From the NCBI GenBank assembly GCA_020636645.1, contig JACJXO010000002.1, positions 99,375 to 163,374 of the forward strand: 64,000 nucleotides of DNA, in the 5' to 3' direction. Positions 14,911-58,632 of this stretch are shown piece after piece (within the stretch, counting starts at the first letter, position 1; each line of letters opens with the position of its first letter). Source of the stretch: Chitinophagales bacterium. GTDB lineage: Bacteria; Bacteroidota; Bacteroidia; Chitinophagales; BACL12. The notes under the pieces are model-generated. The model made no database searches and was not told the DNA's origin. It saw only the letters and a program-made list of their open reading frames with translations. Made by a program: the position numbers and the translations under genes.

Positions 14911-16506
14911 ATGAGATCCATTTTTACCTTCTTTGCAGCTGTTCTGCTCTCCACAGCCGCAATGGCTCAGACCTACAATGTCACCTTCCGGGTTGACATG
15001 AATGAAGTAGGTGACCCTTACACAACTCCTGAAGTAAACGGCAGCTGGGATGGCTGGTGTGGCGGTTGTACTCCGCTGGAAGATCCTGATGGTGATGGTG
15101 TGTGGACCATTACCAAAACACTGGATGCAGGCTTTTATGAGTATAAGTTTGCCTTTGACAGCTGGGCCGGATCTGAGACCCTGGCTCCGGGCTCATCCTG
15201 TACCATTACCACCGGTGGCTTTACCAACCGCTTTGTTGATGTGACCGGCGATGTTGCCCTCGATACCGTATGTTATGGTGCCTGTACTACCTGTTCAGAA
15301 GCCGTCACATATGACATCACTTTTTATGTGAACATGAATGAAGTAGGCGATCCTTATACCACTCCTGAAGTGAATGGTAACTGGGACGGCTGGTGCGGTG
15401 GTTGTACTCCGCTGGAAGATCCTGACGGAGATGGTATCTGGAGTATAACCAAGTCTCTCTCTCCCGGTACCTATGAATACAAGTTTGCCTATGACAGCTG
15501 GACAGGTTCAGAGAACCTCGCCCCCGGTACAGACTGTACCATCACCACCGGAGGCTTTACCAACCGGATTATAACTGTAGATGCAGATGCTGCCCTCCCG
15601 GTAGTATGCTGGGGAAGTTGCAGCAACTGCGGAGAGGCTGTACTGTATGATGTAACCTTCCAGGTCAACATGAATGAAGTGGCTGATCCGTTCACCACAC
15701 CAGAAGTGAATGGTACTTTCAATGGTTGGTGCGGCGGTTGTGCGCCTATGTCAGATGGCGATGGCGACGGTATCTGGGAGATCACCATTCCTCTGGAAGC
15801 CGGCACGTATGAATATAAATTTGCATATGATAGCTGGGCAGGACAGGAAACCCTGACTCCCGGCGATCCTTGTACTATGACCACTGATGTATTCACCAAC
15901 AGGGTGATCACCATCAGCGAAGAAACTGTGATAGGTGCAGTATGCTGGGGCAGCTGCGACAATTGTGTTGTGGCTACCTGCGAGCTTCCGTCTGATGTGA
16001 CCATTGACTATGTAGGAGGTACCGGCACGGAAGCAACCGTTACCTGGACCGCTGTACCTGGTGCTACCCAGTACGGACTCCGTTATCGTGAACTTGGTAC
16101 TCCTGAATGGCTTAAAAAAGCTACCACAGGTACCGGTGTTTTCCTGATCGGCCTGACCCCTGGTGCAACATATCAGTATCAGATGGTAAGCCGCTGCGGT
16201 GAAGACCGTGCAGGCCCCGGTTCCATTGCTACCTTCACTACTCCTACCAGAATGGGACAGTTTGGTTCTGATGACTGGATGGTATATCCTAATCCAAGCA
16301 ATGGTACCTTCCAGCTGGTTTCTTCAGGTCTGTCAGAACAAGCCATGCTGATGGTCATGAATGTGGCAGGTCAGCAGGTGTATGAGACCATGATCACCAA
16401 CGACAGCCAGACCATAACCCTGAATGGCCTTGCCGATGGCTTGTACACCCTGGTAATCGTTGCAGGTGAAAGTATGTCTGCAACTACCATTTCCATTCTG
16501 CAATAA
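14911..16506 (+). CDS. T9SS-secreted protein with 3 tandem copies of a roughly 112-aa six-cysteine repeat domain (CBM-like), then Fn3, then a T9SS C-terminal sorting domain.
   Basis: Signal peptide AAMAQ. The repeat (TF.VDMNEV.DP.TTPEVNG.WDGWCGGCTPLEDPDGDG.W...YEYKFA.DSW.G.E.L.PG..CT.TTG.FTNR.....VCWGSC) is seen three times. Fn3-like TVTWTAVPGATQY. CTD VYPNPSNGTFQL...ISILQ. Confidence 0.8.
   Translation: MRSIFTFFAAVLLSTAAMAQTYNVTFRVDMNEVGDPYTTPEVNGSWDGWCGGCTPLEDPDGDGVWTITKTLDAGFYEYKFAFDSWAGSETLAPGSSCTITTGGFTNRFVDVTGDVALDTVCYGACTTCSEAVTYDITFYVNMNEVGDPYTTPEVNGNWDGWCGGCTPLEDPDGDGIWSITKSLSPGTYEYKFAYDSWTGSENLAPGTDCTITTGGFTNRIITVDADAALPVVCWGSCSNCGEAVLYDVTFQVNMNEVADPFTTPEVNGTFNGWCGGCAPMSDGDGDGIWEITIPLEAGTYEYKFAYDSWAGQETLTPGDPCTMTTDVFTNRVITISEETVIGAVCWGSCDNCVVATCELPSDVTIDYVGGTGTEATVTWTAVPGATQYGLRYRELGTPEWLKKATTGTGVFLIGLTPGATYQYQMVSRCGEDRAGPGSIATFTTPTRMGQFGSDDWMVYPNPSNGTFQLVSSGLSEQAMLMVMNVAGQQVYETMITNDSQTITLNGLADGLYTLVIVAGESMSATTISILQ
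14968..15975 (+). repeat. 3 x 336-bp coding tandem repeat, one protein domain per unit.
   Basis: Units begin near 14968, 15304 and 15640. Nucleotide identity is high but with third-position divergence. Confidence 0.75.
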
Positions 16507-44471: not shown

Positions 44472-45980
44472 CTACTGTATCACCATCAGTTTCGTATCCA
44501 CCACTTTTCCATCCACCAGCAATGTATAGCTATAAGTACCTGCTGCCAATTGTGTAGCATCTACTTCTAAAACACCATTGCCCAGTTTTACATCAGCCAT
44601 GAACAGGCTTACCCCGGCAGCATCGGCTATTTTTATAATTGCCTGTTCGGCAGTTTCGGGTACAAAATAGCGTATGGAGGTACTACCGGTAAAAGGGTTG
44701 GGTCTGTTCTGAGAAAGGGTGGCCTGCGTTTGGTTTGAGGCTACAAAGATCCGTTGTACCTCATCCGTTGTTGACTCATTCATCTGAATACCTTGTTGAC
44801 CAAGCAGGGCTTCCAGTCTGGAAATGCGATCTTCCAGATTTGTATTCTCTGCATCCAGTTCCTGCACTGCTTTTACCAGCGGTACCACAAAGGTGGCATA
44901 GCGCAGGCCCAGGAGGCGACCGCTGGCATCTACGCCGCTGAACTCATACCCCAGGTCTTCTGCCGCAGCAGCCACTTCCTGGGCTATGAATCCGGAAAAG
45001 GCCTGTTCTTCAATGTCGTATTTGCCGGTCCACGTAGCGGTATCTACTCTGCCCATCAGCTGGTTCTGGGTAGTGATGTTGTAGTGGTAGGTAACCGGCC
45101 GCAGCTGATTGATGAAATCCAGCCCCGGCACATTCTCTTCCACCTGCTCTTTGATGCGGGCATCGCTGTACACGGTCCAGTCCACCTCACCACCGATGCT
45201 GGAGACGCTGGAGTTGCCGATTAGAACTTTATTGGAAGCATCTACTACAGCTATATATCCAACAGCTATTGAGTTCTCAAAATCATTACCAGTTGTAGTA
45301 GCATTGTAGCCAATTCCAATATTATAATTACCTGTTTTATTGACATTTAGAGCCAATGCTCCTATTGCTGTATTACTATTCCCCAGTGTATTATTTGATA
45401 AACTTGCACGACCTATCGCAGTATTTTCATTCCCCTTTGTATTATCACTCATTGCACTGGAACCTATCGCAGTATTCTCGTTTCCTATCTTATTGCTCAG
45501 CATAGCATTAGAACCGATGGAAACGTTATTATCACCACTCTTATTAGAAAAAAGCGAATAATTTCCAATAGCTACATTGCTTTCTCCAAAGTAGTTGTAT
45601 TTAAGAGACAAGTATCCAACGGCAACATTTTGTGATCCGGACTTGTTGTACCGCATAGCCTCTGCTCCAATGGCTGTGTTATATGATCCAATTAAGTTGT
45701 CAGTCAAAACAAGCCATCCAATAGCAGTATTGTAATCACCATCAAGATTGCTGGTAAGTACTCCTTCCCCAAACCCGATCCCGGCAGGTCCATTGTAAAT
45801 AGTTGAGGTTCCTAACCCAATACTGGCATGCCCATCAGGAGAATTGATGTCCAGCAGAAGTTCCGGTGTTGTGGTACCAATACCCACAAATCCGGAGTCG
45901 GGAAAGATATTCTGTGCGCTGGCCGGGTTAATGACAGCTGCCAGAAACGCCATGCAGATCAGTTGAATAAGGTTTTTCAT
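44472..45980 (-). CDS. Tail-fibre-like secreted protein: YadA-head-like NTAIG repeats, then a peptidase-S74-type intramolecular chaperone (autoprocessing) domain, then a T9SS CTD.
   Basis: About 12 copies of a 14-aa repeat (N[TV]AIG..A....G). SDARIKEQVEENVPGLDFINQLRPVTYHYN matches the endosialidase-chaperone/S74 motif. C-terminal ...TYSYTLLVDGKVVDTKLMVIQ. Confidence 0.7.
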   Translation of the reverse strand: MKNLIQLICMAFLAAVINPASAQNIFPDSGFVGIGTTTPELLLDINSPDGHASIGLGTSTIYNGPAGIGFGEGVLTSNLDGDYNTAIGWLVLTDNLIGSYNTAIGAEAMRYNKSGSQNVAVGYLSLKYNYFGESNVAIGNYSLFSNKSGDNNVSIGSNAMLSNKIGNENTAIGSSAMSDNTKGNENTAIGRASLSNNTLGNSNTAIGALALNVNKTGNYNIGIGYNATTTGNDFENSIAVGYIAVVDASNKVLIGNSSVSSIGGEVDWTVYSDARIKEQVEENVPGLDFINQLRPVTYHYNITTQNQLMGRVDTATWTGKYDIEEQAFSGFIAQEVAAAAEDLGYEFSGVDASGRLLGLRYATFVVPLVKAVQELDAENTNLEDRISRLEALLGQQGIQMNESTTDEVQRIFVASNQTQATLSQNRPNPFTGSTSIRYFVPETAEQAIIKIADAAGVSLFMADVKLGNGVLEVDATQLAAGTYSYTLLVDGKVVDTKLMVIQ

Positions 45981-46002: not shown

Positions 46003-47931
46003 TTAAAAATAAGTTATCACGATGACGACCCCGTTGGCGCCATCACCCCCGGCACCACTGGTATGTCCTGAGCCGGCAGCACCACCACCGCCACCTCCTG
46101 CGCCGTAGCTGGCTCCGTTGCCCCCGCTTCCGGCTGTTGCGGAAGCACTGGCAGCGCCCCCACCACCACCGGAGCCCAGGTAATTACCGCTCTCTGCTGT
46201 TCCATTACCACCACTGCCCCCGGAAGTACCTCCGCTGCCTGCTGCCGGAGAACTATTCATGAACTGGATATTGCCCCCGCCGTCACCACCCGAATAGGCG
46301 GTTCCGCCACTGCTGATACCACCTCCGGCTCCTCCACCCAGGCTAGCGTAGTTGCTGTTGCCCGCATCATCGCCCTGGTCTGCCGGGTCAGCACTGGCAC
46401 CAGAGCCTCCCTGAGACTTCAGCCCCGGACCACCTGACCCTCCGGCTGCCCCTGTCGAGGAGCCCCCGTTCCCACCGTTGCCTCCGCTTGCCTTCAGGTA
46501 ATCGCCAAAAAAGGATTTGGTGCCATTGCCACCGTCCTTTCCGTCGCCGGAACTTACGGCAGCTCCTCCTGTTCCACCGGCACCCGCATAGGCCAGTACA
46601 TTGGCATCCAGGTTGGCAGCGTTGAAGGTCATTTCACTCATGCCTCCGGCGCCTCCTCCCGATCCTCCGGACATGTCACCGGTAACCCCACCACTGCCTC
46701 CGCCACCACCACCGCCAATACAGATGACTGTCACCGAAACAGCCCCGGTAGGTTTAGCCCACAGAGTAGTTGTTCCTGTAAACACCTGTACGTCGGTTAC
46801 CACAGTCTCCCAGTCTAAGTTGCCTGACCCATCGGTCTGCAATACCTGGTTGGCATCGCCATCATCATCCGGCCAGGTGTAGCCAACGTCATTGATACGT
46901 ACCAGGTCGCCGGTGGAACTGACCTGAAATTCATCTCCGGATCCTACATTGAATGTATTTGACAATGTTGAACCGCTATTGCCGACACTGAATTTACCAG
47001 AACTCAAATCGCCATATAATAGATTTCCAATATTTAGCCTGTTGCTTAAATCCAAACCGGTTGATGGATTTACTGAAATATTGTTACCGATTACAATATT
47101 ATTATTACCTGATTGGCTTGGAAAGCTACCTTTCCCAGATTCCGAGCCAACAAAAATGTTATTGCTCCCGTCGCTAATAGATGAGCCAGCTGAATATCCA
47201 ATTACTGTATTTTCAACACCTTCTGTTAGGCCTATAACTGAATTATAACCTATTGCAACATTATAATCACCTGAAGTTACATTACCCAACACACCAGTAG
47301 TAGTTGAAGTACCGCCGATAGCAATGTTGCCATCACCGGTCACCTGCGGGCTATCTGAATTATTATAGTAGGTATTTTGGCCAATTCCAATATTTGATGA
47401 TCCGGTTGTAATCAACTCACCAGCTCTGCTACCGATCATTGTATTCTTGCCGCCGCTGGTAATATTGCTGGATGAGTACCATCCAACCGAAGTATTGTGC
47501 CCTGCAGAACCAGTGACTGTTTCTAAGGCTTTATATCCGATACCCACCGTTCCATGATTGGAGCTCGAAGCTGCATCCCCTGCATATTCACCAAGAAATA
47601 AACCATCATACGAACCTCCTGTAACGTGCAGAAATTTATTGCTGTTTAGTTTCAGCATATCTACATTGCTGTATCCTTCTGCTTCATCAAAGTGAATGAC
47701 CTTTTCCAGATAAATTTCTGACCAGCTGGAATCTTCAGACCCTAAATTCCGATCTGCATCAGGCAAAAGATGTGAATTGATATTAGTTGTTACGTCCAGA
47801 TTGCTCAGGTCTTCACAGGCGGGATCACATGTCTGTGCAAACATGCGGTTACCACACATGGATGTGAGCAACAAACAAACGATCAGTTTGTAAAATGGGG
47901 GGGGGGGGCTTAACAGGAAATTAACCTTCAT
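46003..47931 (-). CDS. Surface protein with N(T/I/V)xIG beta-helix-like repeats and a C-terminal roughly 250-aa glycine-rich low-complexity domain ending ...VVIVITYF. Contains a 5' C12 tract.
   Basis: Repeat motifs NTMIG/NIGIG/NIAIG/NVAIG/NTVIG. Long GGxGG stretch. A homopolymer encodes SPPPP at codons 9-12. Confidence 0.65.
   Translation of the reverse strand: MKVNFLLSPPPPFYKLIVCLLLTSMCGNRMFAQTCDPACEDLSNLDVTTNINSHLLPDADRNLGSEDSSWSEIYLEKVIHFDEAEGYSNVDMLKLNSNKFLHVTGGSYDGLFLGEYAGDAASSSNHGTVGIGYKALETVTGSAGHNTSVGWYSSSNITSGGKNTMIGSRAGELITTGSSNIGIGQNTYYNNSDSPQVTGDGNIAIGGTSTTTGVLGNVTSGDYNVAIGYNSVIGLTEGVENTVIGYSAGSSISDGSNNIFVGSESGKGSFPSQSGNNNIVIGNNISVNPSTGLDLSNRLNIGNLLYGDLSSGKFSVGNSGSTLSNTFNVGSGDEFQVSSTGDLVRINDVGYTWPDDDGDANQVLQTDGSGNLDWETVVTDVQVFTGTTTLWAKPTGAVSVTVICIGGGGGGGSGGVTGDMSGGSGGGAGGMSEMTFNAANLDANVLAYAGAGGTGGAAVSSGDGKDGGNGTKSFFGDYLKASGGNGGNGGSSTGAAGGSGGPGLKSQGGSGASADPADQGDDAGNSNYASLGGGAGGGISSGGTAYSGGDGGGNIQFMNSSPAAGSGGTSGGSGGNGTAESGNYLGSGGGGGAASASATAGSGGNGASYGAGGGGGGAAGSGHTSGAGGDGANGVVIVITYF
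47897..47908. repeat. G12 (coding-strand C12) homopolymeric tract inside codons 9-12 of the gene 46003..47931. Candidate slipped-strand phase-variation switch.
   Basis: aaaatGGGGGGGGGGGGcttaacagg is the only homopolymer longer than 10 nt in the window. It lies within the 5' coding region. Confidence 0.8.
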
Positions 47932-48318
47932 GGTCTGATTTTTTGATGTGGAACAATGAAGGCAGAATGGGGCATGTAGGGAAGTTACAAGTTGTTTTTG
48001 GAAAGTACAAATTACTTAGATACAGCACTTGGACTATGTCAAGTATGAGAGCTCTTCTTATGGCGGGGTTATTTTGTTTCAGCGTTGTTACTGGCCACAG
48101 GACGTGGCGTGATGCAGGAGATTCCTGTTATCAGTCTGCAGTCATTAATCCTGAGTCGGCTTCAGGAATAACGTGTTCTTTAGAAGGTGTTGTTCGACTA
48201 TCGGGAAGTCATGCCAACCGCCAGGAAACTAAGTCTCATTACCCAATACTCCCTACTCAATACCCGATACTAACCATCGTCCTTCCTCCTTTCACAATTT
48301 CCTCCTTACTTTACCCAT

Positions 48319-49476
48319 ATGCAATCGCCGATCATCATTCGTTCCAAATTACCCAACACAGGCATCAGCATTTTCGCCAGAATGACCGCTCTGGCCAATC
48401 AGCACGGAGCCATCAACCTGGCCCAGGGGTTTCCAGATTTTCCCCCGCCAAAAAGACTCGTTTCACTCGTGGCTGATGCCATGCGAAAAGGCCACAACCA
48501 GTATGCACCCATGCCGGGTGTGCCCGATCTGCGGGAAGCCATTGCAGACAAGACTAAAGACACTTATAAGTGCAAAGTGGATGCAGAAAAGGAAGTGACC
48601 GTAACAGCAGGGGCCACTTACGGACTGTTCGCTGCATTCCAGGCCTTGCTGCATGAAGGCGATGAGGTACTGGTGTTCGAACCGGCCTACGATTCATATG
48701 TGCCCGGTATCCAGCTGGCAGGCGCAGAACCTGTTTTTGTGGAACTGCATGCACCGGATTATAGCATCGACTGGGAAGGCGTCAAGAAAAAGATCAATGC
48801 CAGAACAAGGGCCATTCTGATCAACACCCCCCACAATCCGTCCGGAACCTGCTGGACGAAAAATGATCTCCTTCAGCTTGAAAAGATCGTGGTGGGAACC
48901 GACATCATCGTCATCAGCGATGAAGTGTATGAACACATCACCTTCGATGATGGCCGGCATGAAAGCGTGCTGCGCTATCCGAAGCTGGCACAGCAGAGCA
49001 TCGTCATATCCTCCTTCGGCAAAACCTATCACAACACAGGTTGGAAGATGGGTTATGTGATCGCCAATGAATCCATCACCAAAGAGTTCAGGGCAGTGCA
49101 TCAGTTCCTGGTCTTCAGTGTGAACACACCTATGCAGTATGCGGTGGCGCAGTTCATCCGCGAAGCGCCGGAACATTTTCAGGATCTGCCACAATTCTAT
49201 CAGCGCAAACGGGATTTTTTCCTGGAAGCCGTAAAAGATTCCCGGTTCTCCTTCACGCCCGCATCAGGCACCTATTTTCAACTGCTCGACTACAGTGCCA
49301 TCTCAGATGAACAGGATACGGTCTTTGCAGAACGGATCACCGCAGAGTTTGGCGTAGCTGCCATACCTTTGAGTCCGTTCTACCGCGGCCCGGTAGGCGA
49401 CAGGGTGCTGCGTTTCTGTTTTGCCAAAAGCGAAAAGACCCTGGAAAAAGCGGCCGCTATCTTATGCAGGATCTGA
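48319..49476 (+). CDS. Class I/II PLP aminotransferase, methionine aminotransferase (YbdL)-like.
   Basis: SFGKTYHNTGWKMGY PLP-lysine motif. 385 aa. Followed by an omega-amidase-like gene, as in ybdL-yafV pairs. Confidence 0.75.
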   Translation: MQSPIIIRSKLPNTGISIFARMTALANQHGAINLAQGFPDFPPPKRLVSLVADAMRKGHNQYAPMPGVPDLREAIADKTKDTYKCKVDAEKEVTVTAGATYGLFAAFQALLHEGDEVLVFEPAYDSYVPGIQLAGAEPVFVELHAPDYSIDWEGVKKKINARTRAILINTPHNPSGTCWTKNDLLQLEKIVVGTDIIVISDEVYEHITFDDGRHESVLRYPKLAQQSIVISSFGKTYHNTGWKMGYVIANESITKEFRAVHQFLVFSVNTPMQYAVAQFIREAPEHFQDLPQFYQRKRDFFLEAVKDSRFSFTPASGTYFQLLDYSAISDEQDTVFAERITAEFGVAAIPLSPFYRGPVGDRVLRFCFAKSEKTLEKAAAILCRI

Positions 49477-50246: not shown

Positions 50247-50639
50247 CTAATTCCTGGAAGGAAAGATCCCGGATGTGCATATGATATAGTGCATTCCCAA
50301 TCCCTTGACACCATTGGCGTCTCTGCCCAGCTTCACGGATTCACCCACATCAAGGGTGTTGGCTCCATTGGATAGACCTACACCTACCGGAACCGCACCA
50401 CGCAGGTCAGGTAGCGCAAACGTGGTTCGTCCATCGCCGCCATAATAGGTACCGATGATGGAGAATAAAGCGGAGTATTCTGAGATGTTCAGTATCTGAC
50501 CATCGCAGAATGCCCAGCCGCGTGGGGCAAAACTTCCTGCAAATAAACGAACCTCGCCCAGCATGGCGTCCTGGGCCTTTGCACCACCTACGAAAAGTGT
50601 GGTGACCAGTGCCATGAGTAACAGATGTTTTTTCATCAT
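50247..50639 (-). CDS. Secreted phage-tail-collar-domain protein (MdpB/rhizobiocin-like).
   Basis: Signal peptide. GEVRLFAGSFAPRGWAFCDGQILNISEYSALFSIIGTYYGGDGRTTFALPDLRG is the tail-collar domain signature. Confidence 0.7.
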   Translation of the reverse strand: MMKKHLLLMALVTTLFVGGAKAQDAMLGEVRLFAGSFAPRGWAFCDGQILNISEYSALFSIIGTYYGGDGRTTFALPDLRGAVPVGVGLSNGANTLDVGESVKLGRDANGVKGLGMHYIICTSGIFPSRN

Positions 50640-54981: not shown

Positions 54982-57711
54982 ATGGTTTCGTGTAATCCAT
55001 CTCCCAAAGTGAATATGCCGGAAGAAAAGACCATAAGAATTGCCGCCGCCTCCCGTGAGTTTAACGTGGGTGTTCAGCACATTGTCGAGTTCCTTCAGGA
55101 GAAGGGATTCGAGGTGGATGCCAAACCCAATACCAAACTCACCCAGGAGATGTACACCCTGCTCATCAAGGAATACTCCAAAGACAAGGTGCTCAAGGAG
55201 AAAGCAGACCAGGTGAACATTGGTGTGGCCAGGCAGTTGGATAAGGAGGAAGCTGAAAAAGTGGAAACGGTAACTGAAGTGCCTCAGGTGGAAGTACCGG
55301 TTGAAGTAATAGCTGAAAAGAAAACGGAAGAAGAGGCACCTAAGCAAACCGAAAAGAAAGAAGAAGAACCTCCGGTTCAGGAAGAACAGCCGGCAGAAGA
55401 AGAGGTCATCAAGGCCCGAAAAGAGAAAGTAGAGATGAAGGTGCTGGGTAAGATTGACCTGGAAAGCACCAGGAAGAAACCAGCCAAAAAGACCACCACC
55501 AAGAAAGAAGAGCCTCCTGTAGTGGAAGAGAAACCGGTAGAAGAACCGGTTGTGAAGAAAGAAGAGCCTGTTGTTGCTAAAAAAGAGACTCCCCCCGAAC
55601 CGGAGATGATCGAGACCAAACGGGTCAAACTGGAAGGTCCGAAGGTGATGGGCAAGATCATCATCAAGGAAGAAAAGAAACCGGAGAAAAAGGCAGACGG
55701 CGACGATAAGAAAAAACGCAAGCGCATACGGAAACCGGAGCGGATCAATGTAGATCGCCACCGCGATACGAATGATCGCCGCGATAACCGCAACAAACCA
55801 CCACTCGATCCGGAAGAGCACCAGCGCCAGATTCAGGAACAGATCCGCAGTACACTGGCCAAACTGGGCACCGGTAAAGGCAAGTCGCAGAAGAGCAAAA
55901 TAAGAAAGCACAAACGGGAAGTTGCCAGAGAAGAACAGGACGGAATGCAGCCTGATTCCAGCATCCTGCAGGTGGCTGAATTCACCTCGCTGTCAGAACT
56001 GGCCAGCCTGATGAACATTGCTCCTACAGAACTTGTACAGAAATGTTTCGACTTGGGTACCATGGTGTCCATCAACCAGCGTCTGGATGCTGAGATCATA
56101 GAGCTGCTGGCTGAAGAATTCGGCTTCCAGGTCAAGTTCATCAACGTACTGGAAGACGACGAAGAAGCGGAAGAAATAGCAGATGCCCCTGAAAGCCTGT
56201 TAACCAGACCGCCCATCGTGACCATCATGGGTCATGTGGACCACGGTAAAACATCTTTGCTGGATTACATTCGTGAGTCTAACGTGGTGGCAGGCGAAAA
56301 AGGTGGTATCACCCAGCACATCGGTGCTTATGAAGTACAGACAGAAGCCGGTCGCCGCATTGCATTCCTGGATACTCCGGGTCACGAAGCCTTCACCGCC
56401 ATGCGGGCAAGGGGTGCCAAACTGACCGATATTGCCATCATTGTGGTAGCAGCTGATGACCAGGTGATGCCGCAAACCAGGGAAGCCATCAGCCACGCAC
56501 AGGCTGCCGGTGTGCCGATGGTCTTTGCCATCAATAAGATAGATAAGCCTACTGCCAATCCTGATAAGATCAAGGAGCAACTGTCGCAATTGAATATTCT
56601 GGTAGAAGACTGGGGCGGAAAGTTCCAGAGTCAGGAGATCTCTGCCAAGAGCGGACTCAACGTAGATGTACTGCTGGAAAAAGTATTGCTGGAAGCAGAC
56701 CTGCTTGACCTGAAGGCCAATCCAGACAAGGAAGCCATAGGTACCATCATTGAAGCATCTCTGGATAAAGGCCGTGGTTACGTGAGCAATATCATGGTGC
56801 AGGAAGGCACACTCAAAGTGGGCGATATGGTTGTGGCAGGTCCATACTTCGGACGTGTCAAAGCCATGTTCAATGAAAGAAACCAAAAGATCGATAAGGC
56901 CGGACCTTCTACACCTTTATTGTTACTCGGTCTGAACGGCGCACCACAGGCGGGCGAACGTTTCAAGATCTATGAAGATGAAGACGAAGCGAAGACTGTT
57001 GCCAACAGAAGGATGCAGATCGTTCGTGAACAGGGTATCCGAACCAAGAAACATATCACTCTGGAAGAGATCGGCCGACGCAAGGCACTGGGTACCTTCC
57101 GTGAACTGAATATCATCATCAAAGCCGATGTGGACGGTTCTGCAGAAGCACTGACAGACAGCCTGATGAAGCTGAGTACACCTGAAGTCCAGGTGAACGT
57201 CATCTTCAAGGGTGTGGGTCAGATCACCGAAAGTGATATCATGCTGGCTTCTGCCTCAGATGCGGTGATCGTGGGCTTCCAGGTGAGACCCTCCAGTGCA
57301 GTGCGTACCCTGGCCGATAAGGAAGGTGTAGAGATCAGGTTGTACTCCATCATCTACAAAGCCATCGAAGAAGTGAAGGATGCCATGGAAGGTCTCCTGG
57401 CACCGAAGGTGGAAGAAAAAGTGACCTGTACAGTGGAGATCCGAGAGACCTTCAAGATCAGCAAGGTGGGTACCATCGCCGGTTGTTATGTGCAGGATGG
57501 CAAGATCACCCGGAATACCCAGGTGCGCATCATCCGCGATGGCATCGTAGTGCATACCGGTACCCTGGCATCCCTCAAACGCTACAAAGACGACGCGAAA
57601 GAAGTCACTGCAGGTATGGAGTGCGGGCTGAACATCAACAACTTCAACGACATCCAGGTAGGTGATATCATCGAAGGATTCGAAGAAGTGGAAGTGAAGC
57701 GGAAGCTCTGA
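54982..57711 (+). CDS. infB: Translation initiation factor IF-2.
   Basis: Lys/Glu-rich N-terminal region and a G domain ([24 protein letters not shown]). 909 aa. The start may be the Met at 55015 (MPEEKT). Confidence 0.9.
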
Positions 57712-57866
57712 TAATCAGCGTACCAGCTGATGCAAAACGCCGCACAAGTTGGGCTGGTCATATTGCTGTCTGCCAGAATCTGCCGGACGTAATGAGGTGA
57801 GCGGAATAGTAAGTGGATTTCTGAATGTTCCTGGTATAAGTGTCTGCTGTTCGCTAATTACCGAAT

Positions 57867-57958
57867 TTTCTCATTCTCTCATTTTCACATTTCCCCATTC
57901 TCACATTTCCCCATTTCCCCATTTTCACATTTCTCACATTCTCACATTTTCTCATTTC
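57867..57958. repeat. Degenerate 8-bp microsatellite (ATTTYCMC) x about 11 in the convergent intergenic region between infB and the SDR gene.
   Basis: ttctcattctctcattttcacatttccccattctcacatttccccatttccccattttcacatttctcacattctcacattttctcatttcaag. Confidence 0.75.
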
Positions 57959-58632
57959 AAGTCCCGTCTTTCTGCCAGCACCAGTATGTCTGCCGGTGTG
58001 ATGATCGGTTTGTCATAGCCGTTCGCCGTTACTTCTGCCATGGCCTTACCGATCTGATCCGTATCTACCACTGATTTCGGCGACAGCCACTTGATCAGGT
58101 GTATGAGCCAGGTGAAGTATCTGACAAAAAAGCGATACAGTTTGCTGCTGGGTAGTATGCCACGACGGGGAATGATAGCTCCGGGCCGGAACATGAAAGC
58201 CTGGCGGAATCCCATTTTCAACAGGTCATTTTCGGTCTTCCCTTTTACCCTGGCCCACATGATACGGCCCTGTTCCGTGCTGTCTGTTCCCTGCCCCGAC
58301 ACATAGGTGAAAGTGGCCTGCGGGTTGTGGCGGTGTACTTCTTTTGCCAGCGCCATACTCATATCATAAGTGAACTTTTTGAAATCGGCTTCCTGCATAC
58401 CTGCTGAACTTACACCCATGCAGTGGAAGCAGGCATCATAACCGGCAAGCTGTGCTGATACCGGTGCAAAGTCCAGGAAATTGTCGTGCAGCAGCTCCTT
58501 GAGTTTGGGGTGTTGAATGCCGGCAGATCTTCTGGATACAGAAAGAACTTCTGTGACCATCGGGTCATCAAGACATTCCAGCAATACACCTTTTCCTACC
58601 ATGCCGGTAGCTCCAGTTACAATGATTTTCAT
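57952..58632 (-). CDS. NAD(P)H-binding SDR-family oxidoreductase (atypical SDR).
   Basis: MKIIVTGATGMVGKGV Rossmann motif. 226 aa. Confidence 0.7.
   Translation of the reverse strand: MKIIVTGATGMVGKGVLLECLDDPMVTEVLSVSRRSAGIQHPKLKELLHDNFLDFAPVSAQLAGYDACFHCMGVSSAGMQEADFKKFTYDMSMALAKEVHRHNPQATFTYVSGQGTDSTEQGRIMWARVKGKTENDLLKMGFRQAFMFRPGAIIPRRGILPSSKLYRFFVRYFTWLIHLIKWLSPKSVVDTDQIGKAMAEVTANGYDKPIITPADILVLAERRDLK

Follow-up and report, generated by a model that had tools for sequence, protein, structure and literature searches.

Homopolymeric contingency loci are textbook features of host-adapted pathogens such as Neisseria, Haemophilus, Campylobacter and Helicobacter. Here we analyze a run of 12 cytosines (C12) in the 5′ coding region of a gene for a phage-tail-fibre-like, glycine-rich protein, hereafter gene A, in a 64 kb stretch of DNA (the window) from a Chitinophagales bacterium, an uncultured organism known only from metagenome assemblies. 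We propose, with a probability of roughly 0.6, that the tract is a translational contingency switch that operates by slipped-strand mispairing and whose duplication on two fibre operons is due to a 5′ cassette common to both. The locus is a plausible further case of contingency switching based on a simple-sequence repeat (SSR). Contingency switching in general proceeds at ~100–10,000 times the basal mutation rate (PMC11868660).

The closest analogue is the gene pair pilC1/pilC2 of Neisseria gonorrhoeae and Neisseria meningitidis, in which a G/C homopolymer within the signal-peptide codons turns translation ON and OFF (PMC13017665). Like gene A and its paralog, gene B, the two pilC genes are paralogous fibre/adhesin genes that each carry a tract and are set independently (PMC13017665). 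However, the protein families are unrelated, PilC/PilY1 being pilus-tip adhesins and the present protein resembling a phage tail fibre. In addition, pilC switching has been measured in a host-adapted proteobacterial pathogen, whereas our case concerns an uncultured member of Bacteroidota and is drawn from sequence alone. The cut-off applied to the Neisseria phasome is at least nine G residues (G≥9; PMC5953494), a length that the C9, C12 and G9 tracts described below all reach.

Campylobacter jejuni offers a second likeness, with intragenic G/C tracts of 8–13 nucleotides (nt; modal length 9) in surface-structure genes, the longer ones being more mutable (PMC3401435). Tracts of G8–G11 switch at high rates in Campylobacter, where a base is more often added to short tracts and removed from long ones (PMC3401435). 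C. jejuni differs in being without mismatch repair and in having ~30 such loci per genome, compared with the two loci known here. In Listeria monocytogenes, inlA is likewise a secreted or surface gene with a homopolymer at its 5′ end, where a frameshift with recurrent independent origins leaves a short product (8 aa, vs. 14–28 aa here; PMC2831843). The inlA tract is A7, whereas ours is a 12-nt G/C run far outside the compositional background of the genome. Within the same phylum, the invertible promoters of Bacteroides and other Bacteroidota also produce stochastic ON/OFF expression of surface structures, but by means of site-specific invertases (PMC11868660). In the literature we found no SSR-based switch described for Bacteroidota or Chitinophagales, only invertase-based switching.

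The C12 tract and the reading frame of gene A

The features on which the argument rests are as follows.

46003..47931, minus strand: gene A, an open reading frame (ORF) with an ATG start that encodes the 642-aa tail-fibre-like protein.
47897..47908, minus strand: C12 homopolymer (G12 on the plus strand), read directly; the proposed slippage site in gene A.
47883..47885, minus strand: TGA stop, reached in simulation from the annotated ATG at tract lengths of 3n−1 (C11 gives a 15-aa product).
47849..47851, minus strand: TAA stop, reached in simulation from the annotated ATG at tract lengths of 3n+1 (C13 or C10, giving 26–27-aa products).
47836..47931, minus strand: putative signal-peptide coding region, residues 1–32 (MKVNFLLSPPPPFYKLIVCLLLTSMCGNRMFA, then Q33).

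On the plus strand the tract reads ...GTAAAAT GGGGGGGGGGGG CTTAAC..., with G at every position from 47897 to 47908. The 5′ end of gene A is ATG AAG GTT AAT TTC CTG TTA AGC CCC CCC CCC CCA TTT TAC, corresponding to MKVNFLLSPPPPFY, so that C12 is made up of the final base of codon 8 (AGC), the whole of codons 9–11 and the first two bases of codon 12 (CCA), within the codons for S-PPPP. A first-pass annotation had reported a C12 at 47897–47908 in the 5′ coding region of an SPPPP-encoding gene, and direct reading confirms this apart from the codon numbers, given there as 9–12 and corrected here to 8–12. Its description of C12 as the only long homopolymer in the 64 kb was borne out by a census of all homopolymers, in which this tract is the sole G/C run longer than 6 nt and the next-longest homopolymers are three T8 runs. 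The expected number of G or C runs of at least 12 nt per 64 kb is between ~0.004 (independent, identically distributed bases) and ~0.008 (first-order Markov model). The C12 tract is confirmed as real and lies far beyond chance. Apart from the 5′ tracts considered here, long G/C tracts are absent from ~70 kb of sequence from this organism.

In location and length the tract resembles established SSR contingency loci: it is an intragenic repeat within the 5′ end of the ORF, at codons 8–12, and C12 in gene A, C9/C10 in the paralog and G9 in an ortholog all attain the G/C length of ~8–9 nt or more that characterizes such loci. We simulated tract lengths from 6 to 18. Every length that is not a multiple of three ends the ORF after 14–28 codons, in agreement with the earlier claim that a slip of one nucleotide either way shifts the frame, and multiples of three keep the frame and change the number of prolines alone. 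After a frameshift, translation could restart in the main frame only at L20 (TTG), M25 or M30, none of which precedes the hydrophobic core of the signal peptide (L16–C26); the tract itself lies upstream of this core, in the n-region. Because the available restarts fall only within or after the core, OFF alleles are expected to yield no exportable protein.

The homopolymer is retained at the nucleotide level and not at the amino-acid level, as is expected of selection on nucleotides. CCC accounts for 27.5% of the proline codons in the ORFs of the window, and in a codon-usage control the chance that S-PPPP is written AGC CCC CCC CCC CCN is ~0.005. Three other PPP runs in the window are encoded by CCACCACCT, CCACCACCT and CCCCCGCCA, none of which is a homopolymer. 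Similarly, gene A is 22.6% glycine and contains runs of 5, 6 and 7 glycines, yet a variety of codons is used for these and no G run is longer than 5 nt; the 5′ tract is the one place in the gene where a homopolymer is not avoided. Across the paralog and orthologs, the same site encodes PPP, PPPP, GGG or KKRGG. In an ortholog, the corresponding site has a long homopolymer built from another base; in genomes where such runs are otherwise very rare, this argues that it is the tract, not the amino acids, that has been kept.

Tract length in the paralog, the orthologs and other assemblies

A pattern scan of metagenome contigs recovered one locus, L002, which is the gene B paralog. Gene B (P0005) encodes a 484-aa protein that begins MKVNLMLSPPPFYKLIVCLLLTSICGNRMFAQ, is 53% identical to the gene A product over the repeat region and has an unrelated C-terminal domain. 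The order of genes at its locus is aminotransferase V, beta-propeller protein, gene B, a partner gene with a Peptidase_S74 domain and a type IX secretion system (T9SS) tail, and HSP20. The window begins with ORFs of 431 and 532 aa, which we compared with the upstream neighbours of gene B, an aminotransferase of 428 aa and the beta-propeller protein of 532 aa. They are not the same genes, as the window-start ORFs encode a glycosyl hydrolase-like protein and a sugar transporter. Gene B lies elsewhere in the genome. Genes A and B share a 5′ segment, defined by their identity profile.

47802..47981, minus strand: 5′ cassette of ~180 nt (about −50 to +130 relative to the ATG); boundaries approximate.

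Nucleotide identity between A and B within the cassette is 80–98% per 60-nt window, whereas the rest of the two genes is ~50% identical. Two polymorphisms are common to both loci, TTCCTG/TTGATG at codons 5–6 and ACA/TCA just after the cleavage site. The shared polymorphisms together with the near-identical patches point to gene conversion between A and B.

All tract lengths were read from consensus assemblies. For gene B, where sampling was biased towards truncated calls, they distribute over two haplotypes.

Haplotype 1 (TTGATG): C9 (ON) at 11 loci; C10 (OFF) at three loci, L019, L030 and L033.
Haplotype 2 (TTCCTG): C9 once (protein P0132); C10 at eight loci, from three pipelines.

By cluster membership, gene B is in frame in ~137 contigs and truncated in 12–13, with at least one of the truncated calls being really C9. 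The SNPs (single-nucleotide polymorphisms) that define the haplotypes lie 6 nt from the tract, and all four combinations of haplotype and length are seen. With both lengths on both haplotypes and the defining SNPs so near, the simplest reading is that ±1 changes have recurred, rather than that recombination has reassorted the alleles. The OFF alleles of gene B are otherwise intact to the normal stop and carry no second disabling mutation. One metagenome-assembled genome (MAG), GCA_035447165.1, combines an in-frame gene A (P0001) with a C10 allele of gene B (L030), which indicates that the two loci are set independently.

Both paralogs also have an upstream ATG followed by a small C run (window 47932–47977, minus strand; L020, about 2456–2500). 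In gene A the upstream ATG reads ATGCCCCATTCTGCC (C4) and opens a 15-codon upstream ORF, the TGA of which overlaps the main ATG. In gene B the upstream run is C5 or C6 and is linked to haplotype; C5 places the upstream ATG in the main frame, giving rise to 499-aa calls.

Gene A itself is much less variable. Public assemblies contain its exact 642-aa product in 150 blocks and the exact product of its partner gene in 163; when looked up by way of the partner protein, the 642-aa form was present in 24 of the 24 contigs read. Truncated products of 618 and 613 aa are on record for nine contigs, of which six were read for tract length, in addition to L001. The gene A tracts read are listed below.

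L001, L003, L006 and L007: C12; L003, L006 and L007 are Joint Genome Institute (JGI) records in which the gene caller picked a later ATG.
L031: C12.
L008 (ERZ28656000): C11 (OFF), with gene-A-specific sequence on both sides.
L005 (Logan SRR6747750, positions 1–74): C10, suspect; the contig begins inside the cassette common with gene B.
L004 (GCA_003448375.1, DMAC01000109.1, positions 1–112): C9, suspect; the sequence upstream is of the gene B type and lies at the end of the contig.

In an alignment of eight copies of the gene A locus, the tract is the sole indel site, apart from the foreign upstream sequence of L004. We did not count L004 and L005 as gene A variants; both are contig ends in or near the shared cassette and may be chimeric. 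Their junctions would be either chimeras across 54–74 nt of identical sequence or real exchanges of the 5′ cassette between the paralogs. The 623-aa form of the gene A product that would start at TTG is not on record. Gene callers have mis-annotated the locus, with truncated calls of 613, 618, 456 and 441 aa on record. An origin of the tract as a poly-G artefact at read ends of two-colour Illumina chemistry was rejected, given its unique and reproducible flanks in at least 150 blocks. Comparison among strains had been proposed in the first-pass annotation as a check on the tract, and the length polymorphism that it sought is real: gene A occurs as C12 and, in L008, as C11, and the paralog as C9 and C10. 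These lengths include out-of-frame ones between conserved flanks, for gene A itself by way of one clean variant.

Three orthologous proteins allow the site to be followed over a greater distance.

L009/P0003 (full length P0137, on a second contig): 59% identical to gene A; G9 at the same codons, N-GGG-I.
L010/P0002: 61% identical to gene A; TTA AAA AAG CGT GGA GGG ATT (AAAAAAGCGTGGAGGG), in-frame KKRGG.
L011–L013/P0004: 51% identical to gene A; ATG followed by A10 (MKKKI), identical in three assemblies.

The coding strand of L009 begins ATG AAG ATG AAA TTA ATG TTA AAT GGG GGG GGG ATT. The site in L010 may once have had a tract that has since decayed, or may never have had one. In the JGI contig Ga0558117_01764 (L009, 3001–4931) the G9 ortholog is split into ORFs of 455, 106 and 89 aa, and in another contig it is a single 638-aa protein (P0137), a difference that points to frameshifts, whether erroneous or real, in the glycine-rich region of the JGI assembly. 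A scan with a five-protein alignment of a genome contig collection that does not include this species had as its sole match a Saccharibacteria MAG (41% identity over 79 residues), which is irrelevant.

The fibre-like product, its partner and the surroundings

The gene A product consists of a signal peptide, tail-spike-like repeats and a C-terminal glycine-rich domain. Its naming in the first-pass annotation as a Gly-rich tail-fibre-like protein is upheld by several comparisons: the Pfam family Gly_rich_2 matches residues 388–638, the repeat region matches tail spike/fibre families of PHROG, and a Foldseek search with the structural model returned the Bxb1 tail-tip protein (9d93_Qa, E 2e-8) and the fibre of cyanophage Pam3 (7ypx, E 8e-5). 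In the AlphaFold2 (AF2) model the glycine-rich domain has a predicted local distance difference test score (pLDDT) of >90, and residues 14–31 form a lone helix. The closest database entry named by NCBI is a protein from a Chitinophagales MAG.

We infer that the product has a Sec signal peptide cleaved at ...MFA|QTCDPAC. Signal-peptide cleavage in Bacteroidetes exposes a Gln, the Q-rule (PMC5837995), and the cleavage proposed here, which would expose Gln, fits this rule. Sites of the same type occur in the orthologs (MLQA|QCDPAC and MLHG|QCDPAC) and in the partner gene (PASA|QNIF). Surface display of the gene A product is no more than plausible, as the protein has neither a T9SS domain nor a lipobox of its own.

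44472..45980, minus strand: partner gene, encoding 502 aa and starting 22 bp 3′ of gene A.
47982..47987, minus strand: TAACTT motif upstream of the cassette, located by eye.

The partner protein has a signal peptide, tail-spike repeats, a Peptidase_S74 chaperone domain (Pfam, E 4e-10) and a T9SS-type C-terminal tail. The scores of this tail are below the family cut-offs (Por_Secre_tail, 18.9 vs. 27 bits; TIGR04183, 21.1 vs. 23 bits), and an NRPNPF motif is present in it. The pair formed by gene A and its partner is kept in the orthologous and paralogous loci, and the two genes are probably co-transcribed. A comparison of the partner genes of A and B (44472–45980, minus strand, and L020, 3974–5473) revealed a patch of ~360 nt, situated at about the Peptidase_S74 domain, in which 60-nt windows are 85–100% identical; elsewhere the identity of the two genes is ~50%. 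The patch is an apparent second gene-conversion tract.

Motifs of the TAACTT type were also found by eye upstream of gene B (TAACTTAG), L009 (TAACTTAG) and L010 (TAACTTGG). The consensus of the −7 promoter box in Bacteroidota is TAnnTTTG, and TAACTT is possibly such a box. A sigma-70 promoter and terminator scan, which is unsuited to Bacteroidota, gave counts at the level of shuffled sequence, and Rfam yielded no RNA-element match in 47400–48400.

The window is ordinary chromosomal DNA; genes neighbouring gene A encode a class I/II aminotransferase, a CN-hydrolase, a GDP-mannose pyrophosphorylase-like nucleoside triphosphate (NTP) transferase, RecQ and IF-2. A scan of viral contigs for the cassette gave no matches. 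We considered and rejected the possibility that gene A is a prophage tail-fibre gene, given its housekeeping flanks, its Sec signal peptide and the lack of a copy in viral contigs. At 50247–50639 (minus strand), 2.3 kb from gene A, is a gene for a 130-aa signal-peptide protein with a Phage Tail Collar domain (PF07484, E 1e-29); it is adjacent in L001 as well and is a further phage-fibre-like secreted protein in a non-prophage context.

Two other repeats were observed in the window. A degenerate tandem array at 57865–57957 has an 8-nt unit, ATTTTCAC, in ~11.5 copies with 79% matches and the variants CATTTTCA/CATTTCCC/CATTCTCA; it sits in the convergent gap between infB (54982..57711, plus strand) and an epimerase-like ORF (57952..58632, minus strand). 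A 336-nt unit repeated 2.3 times (73% matches) at 14978–15741, inside the ORF 14911..16506 (plus strand), probably represents tandem repeats of a protein domain.

A candidate contingency switch and its alternatives

In the proposed mechanism, slipped-strand mispairing at replication would add or remove a C. At lengths of 3n (C9, C12) the gene would be ON, the inserted PPP or PPPP being harmless because the n-region of the signal peptide tolerates it. At other lengths translation would end after 14–28 codons, no downstream start would rebuild the signal peptide, and the gene would be OFF; the S74/T9SS partner may then be reduced as well, through polarity. The cassette would comprise a probable promoter-proximal leader plus the signal peptide, and its presence on both operons would give the cell two fibre variants that differ at the C-terminal tip and are switched independently of each other. 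A high and reversible switching rate and an ecological advantage, for example evasion of phage or grazers, would complete the scheme. The changes from C9 to C10 in gene B and from C12 to C11 in gene A go in the directions of the Campylobacter pattern (PMC3401435), although the numbers are small.

Several observations weigh against this interpretation. Gene A is ON, by consensus, in roughly 92–96% or more of the blocks that carry the locus, so that a switch in gene A, if there is one, is usually held ON. There is one unambiguous OFF allele of gene A (C11 in L008); the C9 of L004 and the C10 of L005 may be assembly chimeras. In gene B, C10 is stably tied to haplotype 2 in eight assemblies and could equally well mark a strain with a fixed loss-of-function allele. 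The gene A protein has no T9SS C-terminal domain or lipobox. The data are consensus assemblies only; many come from the same sample series (ERZ27309xxx, WANG18-1) and are not independent populations, and Illumina data and assemblers can miscount long homopolymers. The earlier designation of the locus as a phase-variation candidate therefore holds in part: the anatomy of the tract, its retention at the nucleotide level and natural ON/OFF alleles, found mainly in the paralog, speak for it, and the nearly constant ON state of the gene A consensus does not.

The same frequencies could be produced by a passive mutational hot spot, in which the tract is a tolerated poly-proline spacer, out-of-frame alleles are occasional and irreversible losses of function, and no bet-hedging is involved. 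The in-frame state of gene A in at least 92% of locus-carrying blocks, the stable association of C10 with one gene B haplotype in eight assemblies and the fact that no rate or reversal has been observed are all consistent with this account. We nevertheless consider it unlikely. Long G/C tracts are otherwise absent from ~70 kb, and even poly-Gly and the other poly-Pro runs avoid homopolymers, yet a tract is found at identical codon positions in both paralogs and, in the form of G9, in an ortholog of 59% identity. Both lengths occur on both gene B haplotypes, and OFF alleles have not acquired a second disabling mutation. Sequencing or assembly artefacts, with stable C12 in gene A and C9 in gene B and with C10 and C11 as miscounts or as chimeric joins across the cassette, are an improbable source of the length variation, because the lengths are reproducible by haplotype across pipelines and samples. 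C12 was found in at least 150 blocks, C9 on haplotype 1 in 11, and C10 on haplotype 2 in eight assemblies that include MEGAHIT-style k141 contigs, WANG18-1 scaffolds and JGI records. L004 and L005 do look chimeric, at contig ends inside the shared cassette, and gene A has only one clean variant; the Tatajuba study describes homopolymers of at least 10 nt as error-prone in Illumina data (PMC8808543). On the other hand, the tracts of L008, L019 (ERZ795053), L030 and L033 are flanked on either side by sequence specific to their locus, so that these are not chimeras, and the coding sequences of both gene pairs are free of any other indel.

Instead of switching, the tract might tune expression quantitatively, either by EF-P-dependent translation of PPP/PPPP or by RNA polymerase slippage, so that C9, C12 and C15 would act as a volume control and OFF alleles would be partly rescued. 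Stalling at poly-proline and transcriptional slippage on long homopolymers are established phenomena, and two in-frame lengths do exist (PPP in gene B, PPPP in gene A). RNA polymerase slippage is documented chiefly for A/T runs, however, orthologs encode GGG or KKRGG at the site so that proline is not conserved, and out-of-frame alleles exist and are common in gene B; tuning is accordingly very improbable. Two further mechanisms were considered and rejected. A gene that depends on programmed frameshifting or transcriptional slippage is at odds with the in-frame length found in the window and in at least 150 blocks, out-of-frame lengths being the minority. For phase variation by an invertible promoter, 47700–48500 contains only two 11-nt, 91% complementary pairs, which is the chance level, and no adjacent recombinase.

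Slipped-strand switching at both tracts thus remains our preferred reading. A more far-reaching version of it, which we offer only tentatively and hold to be rather unlikely, is that the ~180-nt cassette is a portable phase-variation module, homogenized by gene conversion between at least two fibre operons. Each operon would then switch on its own, for a combinatorial display of fibres with different tips (glycine-rich phage-fibre domain in A, unrelated domain in B), and metagenomic time series could be used to follow the system. Gene conversion could also copy the state of the tract from one locus to the other.

If the contingency-switch reading is true, bet-hedging based on SSRs would be extended to Bacteroidota and, by inference, to the pressure exerted by phage or by protozoan grazing. 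The organism recurs in >150 public assembly blocks, sample series included, and the ON/OFF state of both loci could be tracked without cultivation in read data that already exist.

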